From Escherichia phage vB_EcoM_DalCa, in sequence record NC_054908.1: a DNA stretch of 64,000 nt; one strand, written 5' to 3'. Made by a program: the position numbers and the translations under genes. A model generated the notes under the pieces. That model saw only the letters and a program-made list of their open reading frames with translations, did not search any database and had not been told where the DNA came from. Every line of letters begins with the position of its first letter. Position 1 is the stretch's first letter. Positions 4,021-5,761 of this stretch are shown here, one piece after another.

Positions 4021-4179
4021 TACGAAACGCCGGGATTCGAACCCGGTTATTAAGTAGTTGACGCTACTCAATATTTTTAAAAGGCCATATCTCGACCATA
4101 TCCGAACGTTCCGTCAAAAACGCTACTCGGCTTACGGCAAAGATATTTCCTCGAATCGATAATTCGGTGCGCCGTTTCT
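4021..4179 (-). ncRNA. candidate small stable RNA with tRNA-like T-arm and acceptor end
   Basis: minus-strand CCGGG-TTCGAAT-CCCGG T-arm then CGTTTCG; a complementary GAAACG lies about 150 nt upstream; no complete cloverleaf found by hand. Confidence 0.3.
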
Positions 4180-4277
4180 GCTGTGATAGTAAAGAGCCAG
4201 AACACAGTAAAACTGTGGGAGGAAACTATACTCCAGGGAACATCAGTCCGACGACTTACCGGTAGCGACCCGGTTTC

Positions 4278-4628
4278 TTAATATTCTTTTAAAGAATCAA
4301 TATATTCACGGCGTTTACGCCACAAATCAATTGCTTCATACGCGGATTCAGCATTTCGAATTAGCCTGCATTTATGTAAAGACTTATGATTTTGATATTG
4401 TGTAGATAACGGAATTGTATCTAAAAGGTCTTTACGATCAAAATATTCGTAACCATCTAAACCAAATGAACGATTTTTGAGAAATTGCCAATGACCATAT
4501 TCGTTTTCGACATAAACATAATCTGCATGCTGATAAAGCAAATTAATTACACGTTCAGAAATAACAGTATCATTATGATTAAAATAGAATGTTAAATCAT
4601 GAACTACTAAATAAACATTACCTTTCAT
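4278..4628 (-). CDS. hypothetical protein (116 aa)
   Basis: ORF immediately downstream of the tRNA array on the same strand. Confidence 0.6.
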   Translation of the reverse strand: MKGNVYLVVHDLTFYFNHNDTVISERVINLLYQHADYVYVENEYGHWQFLKNRSFGLDGYEYFDRKDLLDTIPLSTQYQNHKSLHKCRLIRNAESAYEAIDLWRKRREYIDSLKEY

Positions 4629-4646: not shown

Positions 4647-4722
4647 TGGTCGAGGCAGTAGGGATCGAACCTACGACCTAGGACTTAGAAGGTCCTTGCT
4701 CTTCCTTCTGAGCTATGCCCCG
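4647..4722 (-). tRNA. tRNA-Arg (anticodon UCU)
   Basis: manual cloverleaf: acceptor CGGGGCA/TGCCTCG, D-stem GCTC/GAGC, anticodon loop CTTCTAA, T-loop TTCGATC, CCA encoded. Confidence 0.85.
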
Positions 4723-4726
4723 TAAT

Positions 4727-4802
4727 TGGGGTGACCGATGGGAGTCGAACCCATGACTACGAGAATCACAATCTCGAGTTCTACCAACTGAACTACGGCC
4801 AC
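4727..4802 (-). tRNA. tRNA-His (anticodon GUG)
   Basis: acceptor GTGGCCG/CGGTCAC, anticodon loop TTGTGAT, T-loop TTCGACT, discriminator C, CCA encoded; no G at -1. Confidence 0.8.
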
Positions 4803-4916
4803 ATTAATACCTACTCCAACAATCAAGATGTCTTCACACGAAATTAAGAGAAGAGTGATCAGTTCAACCCCTATAATCGCGTCAAGTAGATATTAATGTG
4901 ACAGTTGTCACAAATT

Positions 4917-4991
4917 TGGCGGACGTGATAGGATTCGAACCTATAACCAATCGCTTAACAGGCGATCGCTCTGCCATTGAGCTACACATCC
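4917..4991 (-). tRNA. tRNA-Asn (anticodon GUU)
   Basis: acceptor GGATGTG/CACGTCC, anticodon loop CTGTTAA, T-loop TTCGAAT, CCA encoded. Confidence 0.8.
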
Positions 4992-4995
4992 AAAT

Positions 4996-5082
4996 TGGTG
5001 GGGAGTGGTGGAGTCGAACCACCCGAGTCGCAATGACAATGGATTTACAGTCCACACCGCTACCTCTACGGGATAACTCCCC
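4996..5082 (-). tRNA. tRNA-Tyr (anticodon GUA), long variable arm
   Basis: acceptor GGGGAGT/ACTCCCC, anticodon loop CTGTAAA, T-arm GGTGG-TTCGACT-CCACC, CCA encoded. Confidence 0.8.
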
Positions 5083-5091
5083 AAATTAATT

Positions 5092-5166
5092 TGGTGGCCC
5101 TGGGTGGAATTGAACCACCATCTGGCGATTATGAGTCGCTTGCTTGAACCTTCCAGCTACAGGGCC
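5092..5166 (-). tRNA. tRNA with CAU anticodon (Ile-lysidine type or elongator Met)
   Basis: acceptor GGCCCTG/CAGGGCC, anticodon loop CTCATAA, T-loop TTCAATT; occupies the tRNA-Ile position of the T4 array. Confidence 0.75.
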
Positions 5167-5664: not shown

Positions 5665-5761
5665 ATTATTAACAAAGGCTCTTAAGCAAGAACCCTTGAT
5701 GATAGAGGGTATTAATCAGTGCGATATGAGTTAATAATAACAAATAATTCTTAAAGCATAT

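Follow-up and report, generated by a model that had tools for sequence, protein, structure and literature searches.

A family of phage tRNA-His genes carries T at position -1, where bacterial tRNA-His genes encode a G, and keeps the discriminator base C73 with which that G would pair. One member lies in the T4-type tRNA cluster of Escherichia phage vB_EcoM_DalCa (NC_054908.1), of which a stretch of 64,000 nucleotides, here called the window, was analysed. To judge from the sequences compared, T-1 is a fixed trait of the family that recurs in unrelated phages, including T5, and is not peculiar to the gene in the window. The G-1-less pattern is real, conserved and, in the genomes sampled, specific to phages; its functional consequence is putative.

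What seems to be new is a G-1-less tRNA-His that keeps C73, belongs to phages whose hosts have a G-1-dependent histidyl-tRNA synthetase (HisRS), and is coupled to a conserved leader hairpin. Phage tRNA-His lacking G-1 is not mentioned in the searchable full-text literature or in reviews of tRNA identity and Thg1, although the older T5 literature may contain a prior description.

A tRNA-His gene without an encoded G-1

ARAGORN and Infernal place the first nucleotide of the tRNA-His gene at the same position, 4802, and the Rfam tRNA model (RF00005) matches over its full length (4730-4802) with 65.1 bits against a gathering score of 29. The acceptor stem, GUGGCCG/CGGUCAC, consists of G1-C72, U2-A71, G3-C70, a G4.U69 wobble, C5-G68, C6-G67 and G7-C66. 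U8 is present, the D-loop has eight nucleotides (AGUUGGUA), the anticodon loop reads UUGUGAU and the T-loop UUCGACU, and the CCA end is encoded at 4729-4727. In E. coli, C73 is found in tRNA-His only (PMC3064791).

A preliminary description of this gene had reported that T rather than G stands 5′ of the acceptor stem (A on the plus strand at 4803), that the discriminator is C, and that the 3′ end of tRNA-Asn lies 114 nt further upstream. Direct reading of the sequence bears out all three observations, and ARAGORN confirms the anticodon as GUG. The gene thus has the C73 and G1-C72 of a canonical tRNA-His and lacks both the encoded G-1 that would pair with C73 in an 8-bp acceptor stem and U-2, a positive determinant of RNase P cleavage between -2 and -1; position -2 (4804) is A on the coding strand. 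A fold that would supply a G at -1 was also looked for. Shifting the register by one base places U opposite C72, breaks the U8/A14 contact and leaves a CCCA tail, and no alternative register of this tRNA yields a G-1:C73 pair.

Features of the tRNA-His locus in the window (all on the minus strand)
Feature	Position	Strand	Basis or remark
tRNA-Asn (GUU), upstream neighbour	4917..4991	minus	ARAGORN
Structured leader/spacer RNA, 114 nt, between tRNA-Asn and tRNA-His	4803..4916	minus	folding, consensus fold
Small hairpin UGUGAC-AACU-GUCACA	4897..4912	minus	co-fold of leader and tRNA
Closing helix, 5′ strand UUAAUAUCUACUU	4884..4896	minus	fold and covariation
Closing helix, 3′ strand GAGUAGGUAUUAA, ending at -2	4804..4816	minus	fold and covariation
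Position -1, T (G in bacterial tRNA-His genes)	4803	minus	sequence; plus strand A
tRNA-His (GUG), 76 nt, canonical cloverleaf, encoded CCA	4727..4802	minus	ARAGORN, Rfam, sequence reading
Discriminator C73, kept	4730	minus	sequence; invariant in the family
tRNA-Arg (UCU), 4 nt downstream of tRNA-His	4647..4722	minus	ARAGORN

The surrounding region is 99.9% identical over 1.3 kb to Tequatrovirus phages such as fPS-65 (Yersinia), HP3 and YUEEL01 (both Escherichia). ARAGORN finds a T4-type tRNA cluster on the minus strand from 5664 to 4647 in the order Gln, Leu, Gly, Pro, Ser, Thr, Met(CAU), Tyr, Asn, His, Arg. Where T4 has the homing endonuclease gene segB between tRNA-Ile and tRNA-Arg, the window has tRNA-Tyr, tRNA-Asn, the 114-nt spacer and tRNA-His. 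These tRNAs beyond the T4 set (4917-5082 and 4727-4802, minus strand), with anticodons GUA, GUU and GUG, are three of the four GUN, or queuosine-family, tRNAs.

Several other elements of the cluster have counterparts in T4. The tRNA annotated as Met(CAU), at 5092-5166 on the minus strand, stands where T4 has tRNA-Ile (CAU, lysidine), with which it is identical over the first 12 nt, and its equivalent in Escherichia phage REP2 is annotated as tRNA-Ile_CAT; it is likely to be an Ile2-type tRNA and not a Met tRNA. The T4 stable RNAs rnaC and rnaD have homologues (99% and 79% identical, respectively) at 4021-4159 and 4166-4278 on the minus strand, downstream of tRNA-Arg with an ORF (about 4290-4627) in between; in T4 itself they come immediately after tRNA-Arg. 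Within 5665-5745 on the minus strand, an 11-bp hairpin, AAGGGUUCUUG-CUUA-AGAGCCUUU (z = -3.0), stands some 10 nt before tRNA-Gln and probably corresponds to the RNase III site 5′ of T4 tRNA-Gln.

A promoter in the spacer could start transcription at or near +1, but a sigma-70 scan of the minus strand from 4803 to 4916 finds none; TATTAA/ATTAAT boxes occur there with no usable -35 element, and the fPS-65 record annotates no promoter in the tRNA-Asn/tRNA-His spacer. A mini-ORF (GGAG, 9 nt, then AUG-UGG-CCG-UAG) was rejected as the cause of conservation because position -2 varies among relatives and the GGAG is not conserved; its stop codon is an automatic consequence of U8-A9-R10. A T4 RegB site, for which GGAG would serve, was set aside because that motif is unconserved across genera.

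T-1 is fixed in a family of phage tRNA-His genes

A 211-nt query covering the tRNA-His gene is matched at 99% identity or more in 185 phage records. More distant homologues were collected from 16 other phages and 20 IMG/VR contigs, with the family defined by the 5′ half GUGGCNNUARUUCAGUUGGUAGAA. T stands at -1 in all 22 distinct variants that bear U69, and thus in 22 of the 23 variants overall. The sole C69 variant (L144) has G-1, lacks the hairpin and lies in a different context. U69/T-1 variants occur in at least eight genera of Straboviridae (Tequatro-, Karam-, Jiaoda-, Winkler-, Moon-, Kanagawa-, Cinqasso- and Gualtarvirus), in Vequintavirinae and in uncultured phages.

The acceptor stem, C73, the D-arm and the GUG anticodon are invariant in the family, and the remaining stems have diverged by compensatory changes. 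The anticodon stem changes from CGAGA/UCUCG to CAGCA/UGCUG, and the T stem from AUGGG/CCCAU to GACGG/CCGUC, ACCGG/CCGGU and others. Such a pattern indicates that the tRNA is selected for folding and for recognition of its acceptor end and is not a decaying gene, and it argues for what would be a working tRNA still read by an enzyme that recognizes the acceptor end.

The base at -2 is A, T, C or G in different members. A G at -1 was never seen in the U69 variants, although a single T-to-G change would restore it, which suggests that selection may act for T-1, or against G-1, in this family.

Two members depart from the family pattern in other ways. Escherichia phage REP2 (L279, 400-620) retains tRNA-Asn and the entire leader hairpin but has lost tRNA-His from about +5 to about 73, and a remnant, GTGA...ACTAATTA, precedes tRNA-Arg. 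The deletion amounts to a natural knock-out, and because it is clean and leaves the hairpin in place, it indicates that tRNA-His is dispensable. In Citrobacter phage Moon, the T-loop of the tRNA-His copy (L009, 608-683) is degenerate (GGAUUAGAAUUCC; GGATTAGAATTCC) and A37 is replaced by G; the record does not annotate the copy as a tRNA and places it within a hypothetical protein. This copy may be a pseudogene, and it too shows that the gene can be dispensed with.

A structured leader RNA abuts the tRNA

The other spacers of the cluster measure 0-10 nt, leaving the 114-nt spacer before tRNA-His as the sole long one. It folds with a minimum free energy (MFE) of -32.7 kcal/mol (z = -4.36), and none of 200 shuffled sequences folds as well. 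Identity to Karamvirus and to Jiaodavirus-like Klebsiella phages is 88-92%. The spacer has no match in Rfam at E <= 1, and sequence comparison finds no homology to T4 rnaC/rnaD or to T5 RNA I/III.

The leader is closed by a long helix whose 3′ strand runs up to the tRNA. The helix comprises about 14 bp and ends at -1/-2, and U-1 can pair with A4897. It was found in every Straboviridae relative examined, where it begins 1-2 nt past the CCA of the preceding tRNA (AUUAAUAUUCAUUC) and ends at -1 (GAGUGAAUAUUGAU followed directly by G1). The part that it encloses ranges from a UACG tetraloop, in the 31-nt spacer of Kanagawavirus, to inserts of about 190 nt. We define the cassette here by a GUGGCNN/NNGUCAC acceptor stem with U69, C73 and T-1, preceded by a closing helix of about 13-15 bp of the AUUAAUAUUCAUUC / GAGUGAAUAUUGAU type that ends at -1 to -3, and the window carries it in full.

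Among 14 distinct sequences, standard pairs fill 98% of the helix cells, compared with 40-55% when the partner strand is slid; because the strands were taken from the MFE fold of each sequence, the alignment leans towards structure, but the slid-partner control still holds. Four pairs are changed on both sides in this set. G.U pairs are frequent in the helix, indicating that selection acts on the RNA of the tRNA-sense strand. The leader hairpin is a candidate for a new small phage RNA or processing signal. The preliminary description had offered unusual 5′ processing, poor charging or a non-canonical role as ways to accommodate the missing G, and a structured 114-nt RNA whose closing helix abuts the tRNA 5′ end gives the first of these options substance.

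A second element of the leader is predicted to interact with the tRNA itself. The 3′ arm of the small hairpin, GUCACA (4902-4897), duplicates the 3′ acceptor strand of tRNA-His, and its predicted partner is U-1, G1, U2, G3, G4 and C5, so that the leader helix would extend into the tRNA to about 21 bp at the cost of the acceptor stem. By nearest-neighbour energies, which ignore tRNA tertiary structure and modifications, the MFE of this co-fold is -59.8 kcal/mol, versus -55.7 kcal/mol for hairpin plus cloverleaf, with P(C:G1) = 0.95. As double-stranded RNA, the modelled leader would thus present 13 bp, extendable to about 21 bp through GUCACA.

Karamvirus PG7 has the same element and the same predicted pairing. 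Jiaoda-, Kanagawa- and Winklervirus lack it, and in their precursors the hairpin and the cloverleaf are predicted to form side by side, G1 pairing with C72 at P = 0.99 and U-1 being paired at P = 0.91. For the window and PG7, the GUCACA pairing indicates a competing fold of the precursor, not a failure of the tRNA to form.

Loss of G-1 in phages and its absence in cells

Cellular and viral tRNA-His genes were compared by means of a generic pattern, TTGTGRT-N12-13-GGTTCRANNCC, with a single script setting +1 by acceptor pairing for both. The samples are the first 120 matches of each scan (IMG/VR, L018-L137; genomes, L156-L275) and not a census, and the pattern may miss divergent types of tRNA-His. 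G-1 and C73 are present in all 109 bacterial and archaeal genes from species-representative genomes among the matches listed, which reproduces the earlier statement that bacterial tRNA-His genes encode G-1.

Among the IMG/VR matches listed, G-1 is absent from 20 of 57 viral genes borne in tRNA clusters (Fisher p = 4e-11 versus cells). C73 is present in 17 of these 20, and T-1 in 14 of the 17. Host-like genes that stand alone on viral contigs have G-1 in 22 of 23 cases in the same set of matches. The G-1-less viral genes listed fall into about nine acceptor-stem families, indicating that the loss happened several times. T-1 also occurs in a mycobacteriophage (Bixzunavirus), in a Demerecviridae phage of Proteus and in phage T5.

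Three broader generalizations fail. Loss of G-1 is not universal among phage tRNA-His genes, given that 37 of the 57 cluster-borne viral genes among the matches listed have it. A leader hairpin does not accompany every loss, for many G-1-less phage genes sit exactly 1 nt (T) after the preceding tRNA. The G4.U69 wobble correlates with loss of G-1 only inside the family to which the window gene belongs.

Comparison with known tRNA-His systems

The phage gene resembles E. coli hisR in its GUG anticodon, C73, G1-C72, D-arm, anticodon loop and encoded CCA, and the tRNA bodies are 80% identical. It differs at the 5′ boundary, where hisR (...GUAGUG, then GUGGCUA; ...GUAGUG, then GUGGCUAUAGC...) has U-2 and G-1 and the phage gene has A-2 and U-1. 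It also differs in its G4.U69 wobble and in its long structured leader, that of hisR being short and single-stranded.

Alphaproteobacterial tRNA-His of the Caulobacter type likewise uses no -1 nucleotide for identity. That tRNA has A73, G1-U72 and a 9-nt D-loop with U20a, and is read by a divergent HisRS through its anticodon (PMC3064791). The window tRNA instead has C73, G1-C72 and an 8-nt D-loop, and its host HisRS depends on G-1.

The closest parallel is in phage T5 (NC_005859; L276, 10207-10390, minus strand), an E. coli phage of an unrelated family. Its tRNA-His has T-1, T-2 and C73, with an acceptor stem equal to that of E. coli hisR; it has U-2 and G4-C69 in place of the A-2 and G4.U69 of the window. 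Directly 5′ of it, the record lists a 106-nt "RNA III, stable RNA with unknown functions", and the tRNA itself is annotated as 78 nt starting from U-1, which hints at a -2/-1 cut in T5. The window shares this arrangement: a tRNA-His with U-1 and, bordering on its 5′ end, a structured RNA some 100 nt long.

RNA III folds as a hairpin whose 12-bp closing helix ends at -4, whereas the leader helix in the window reaches -1/-2. There is no sequence homology between RNA III and the 114-nt leader, for which blastn-short returns 7-nt chance words only; the resemblance is one of architecture, an analogy between the two loci. According to the T5 record, a tRNA-His with replaced anticodon is an "effective amber suppressor", the inserted amino acid being unstated there, and His-accepting T5 tRNAs appear in a review table (PMC4810235). 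The suppressor note and RNA III together indicate that a G-1-less coliphage tRNA-His body is used by E. coli translation and that a structured RNA lying before the tRNA accumulates.

In T4, the leader hairpin 5′ of tRNA-Gln, an RNase III site, and RNAs C and D are likewise structured RNAs co-transcribed with T-even tRNAs. The leader in the window has no sequence similarity to these elements; its covarying helix is far longer and borders directly on the tRNA, and RNase III would be its presumptive nuclease.

Processing, charging and function of the phage tRNA

The observed gene structure, absence of G-1, conservation and covariation, leader helix and contrast between phages and cells can be read together in one way to which we assign a probability of about 0.5. 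On this reading, the gene encodes a functional, expressed phage isoacceptor of tRNA-His; RNase P cuts the precursor at +1, so that the mature tRNA has no G-1 and its charging is below the optimum, and the leader hairpin is a processing element and probably a stable RNA.

For the cleavage site, the nucleases involved and the level of charging, we infer the following course. A cassette of leader hairpin and tRNA-His would have spread among T4-like phages, and the encoded G-1 would have been lost. The tRNA cluster would be transcribed as a single precursor. RNase III or RNase E would be plausible candidates for opening or cutting its 114-nt leader, which would probably be set free as a small stable RNA resembling RNA III of T5. 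RNase P would then cut the canonical -1/+1 bond, which should be favoured because RNase P prefers U-1 and because both a G-1:C73 pair and U-2 are absent. The mature tRNA would start with pG1, and its acceptor stem would have 7 bp and leave C73 unpaired. C73 and the GUG anticodon would still let host HisRS recognize it, with an efficiency at least 100-fold below that for the host tRNA-His. High expression of the phage tRNA would offset part of this deficit, and the result would be a modest, dispensable boost to the decoding of CAY codons.

The known behaviour of both enzymes informs this reading. For E. coli RNase P, the determinants of the -2/-1 cut are U-2 and G-1; G-1, like C73, also counts against the canonical cut (PMC5499578). 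T is the commonest -1 base among the other tRNAs of the cluster (7 of 11), which fits ordinary RNase P processing, although cleavage could be heterogeneous because C73 is a negative determinant for the canonical cut. Loss of G-1 lowers the efficiency of E. coli HisRS more than 100-fold, and yeast lacking G-1 is viable when tRNA-His and HisRS are overexpressed (PMC3064791; PMC5499578). A charging penalty of at least 100-fold makes a useful translational contribution questionable, and a loss of G-1 that is simply tolerated would seem to leave the invariant T-1 of the family unexplained.

A mature tRNA that keeps U-1 is the main alternative, though we think it unlikely. The leader helix reaching up to -1, together with C73, would shift the cut by RNase P (or RNase III) one bond upstream, and the retained pU-1 would place a 5′-phosphate where HisRS expects that of G-1, restoring charging in part. 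U-1 is predicted to be paired and stacked on G1:C72 (P about 0.91-0.98), much as in normal pre-tRNA-His, where a stacked G-1:C73 pair displaces the cut by RNase P. C73 counts against the canonical cut, but U-1 is optimal for it and the -2/-1 determinants U-2 and G-1 are absent (PMC5499578). The 78-nt tRNA-His of the T5 record, starting at U-1 with RNA III ending at -2, would agree with such a cut, although those coordinates may be annotation by analogy instead of mapped ends.

With respect to charging, the G-1 base serves mainly to position a critical 5′-monophosphate, recognition of the -1 base being largely non-specific (PMC9976931), and loss of the G-1 5′-phosphate costs 510-fold (PMC4357726). 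T-1 is also kept where -2 varies and where the last helix pairs are lost, but since T is the prevalent -1 base of the neighbouring tRNAs, its conservation need not mean retention.

Loss of G-1 on purpose, for a role in counter-defence or outside translation, is improbable. In the former case a host nuclease or sensor would read the 8-bp acceptor end, and the phage tRNA, for instance as a decoy or a replacement, would escape it; in the latter the phage tRNA would be a mostly uncharged tRNA-His with a regulatory effect. The loss of G-1 in about nine phage acceptor-stem families and in none of 109 cellular genes, among the matches listed, looks like phage-specific convergent selection, for which a deliberate role of this kind would be the best account. 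The tRNAs beyond the T4 set, Tyr, Asn and His, all have GUN anticodons, the target class of colicin E5-type anticodon nucleases.

Counter-defence by phage tRNAs against tRNA-cleaving immune systems is documented (PMC11555353; PMC12409363). However, we know of no defence system that uses G-1 to target tRNA-His, and an anticodon nuclease would not be evaded by an anticodon loop identical to that of the host tRNA-His. The invariance of C73 and of the acceptor stem is best explained by HisRS recognition. The idea of a deliberate loss is speculative.

That the gene is decaying or neutral, a poor copy carried along after a 1-nt deletion in a GG run (ATGGTGG to ATGTGG) removed G-1, is very unlikely. 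Phage genes with G-1 typically read ATG immediately before the first G of the tRNA, and those of the U69 family read AT, as such a deletion would leave them. The precise deletion of tRNA-His in REP2, the degenerate and unannotated copy in Moon and the lack of a tRNA-His gene in T4 itself point the same way. Yet drift would be expected to erode the anticodon, C73, D-arm and acceptor stem, which are intact across genera while the other stems have diverged by compensatory changes, and the near-identity of the locus in the 185 phage records also speaks against decay.

Addition of G-1 after transcription by a Thg1-like 3′-5′ polymerase, with C73 as template, as in eukaryotes and some archaea, is highly improbable. 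The C73 that is kept could template a G; to our knowledge, E. coli has neither Thg1 nor TLP, and we know of none among the intensively studied proteins of Tequatrovirus. A few jumbo phages do have a Thg1 homologue, in a sporadic distribution (PMC7824862), but this route would require the enzyme in Straboviridae, Vequintavirinae, Demerecviridae and mycobacteriophages alike. An annotation artefact, finally, has a negligible chance of being the explanation.

Implications

G-1 is treated as a hallmark of tRNA-His in all domains of life. The known exceptions, in some alphaproteobacteria, a few protists and the mitochondria of C. elegans, all have a co-evolved HisRS. The phage genes described here, in a large conserved coliphage family, in T5 and in several other phage lineages, lack G-1 and belong to viruses that infect hosts with a G-1-dependent HisRS. 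If these tRNAs are charged and used, then either the tolerance of HisRS in vivo is far above what its kinetics imply, or the phage tRNA has a different 5′ end. Either outcome would bear on tRNA identity rules, on the purpose of phage tRNA repertoires (codon supply versus counter-defence) and on the design of orthogonal His tRNAs. The leader hairpin, for its part, has a 50-year-old unexplained counterpart in T5 RNA III.

A more far-reaching proposal, which we put forward tentatively and consider somewhat unlikely, is that phage tRNA-His genes have repeatedly and adaptively dropped G-1 while keeping C73, as the roughly nine families and the 35% of cluster-borne against 0% of cellular genes among the matches listed might suggest. 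Leader RNA stacked on the acceptor stem would then dictate pU-1 in T4- and T5-like phages, or the tRNA-His pool would be handled differently by HisRS, RNase P or a host defence factor. If true, this would be a second way of specifying histidine identity, one particular to viruses and at work in hosts with a G-1-dependent HisRS.
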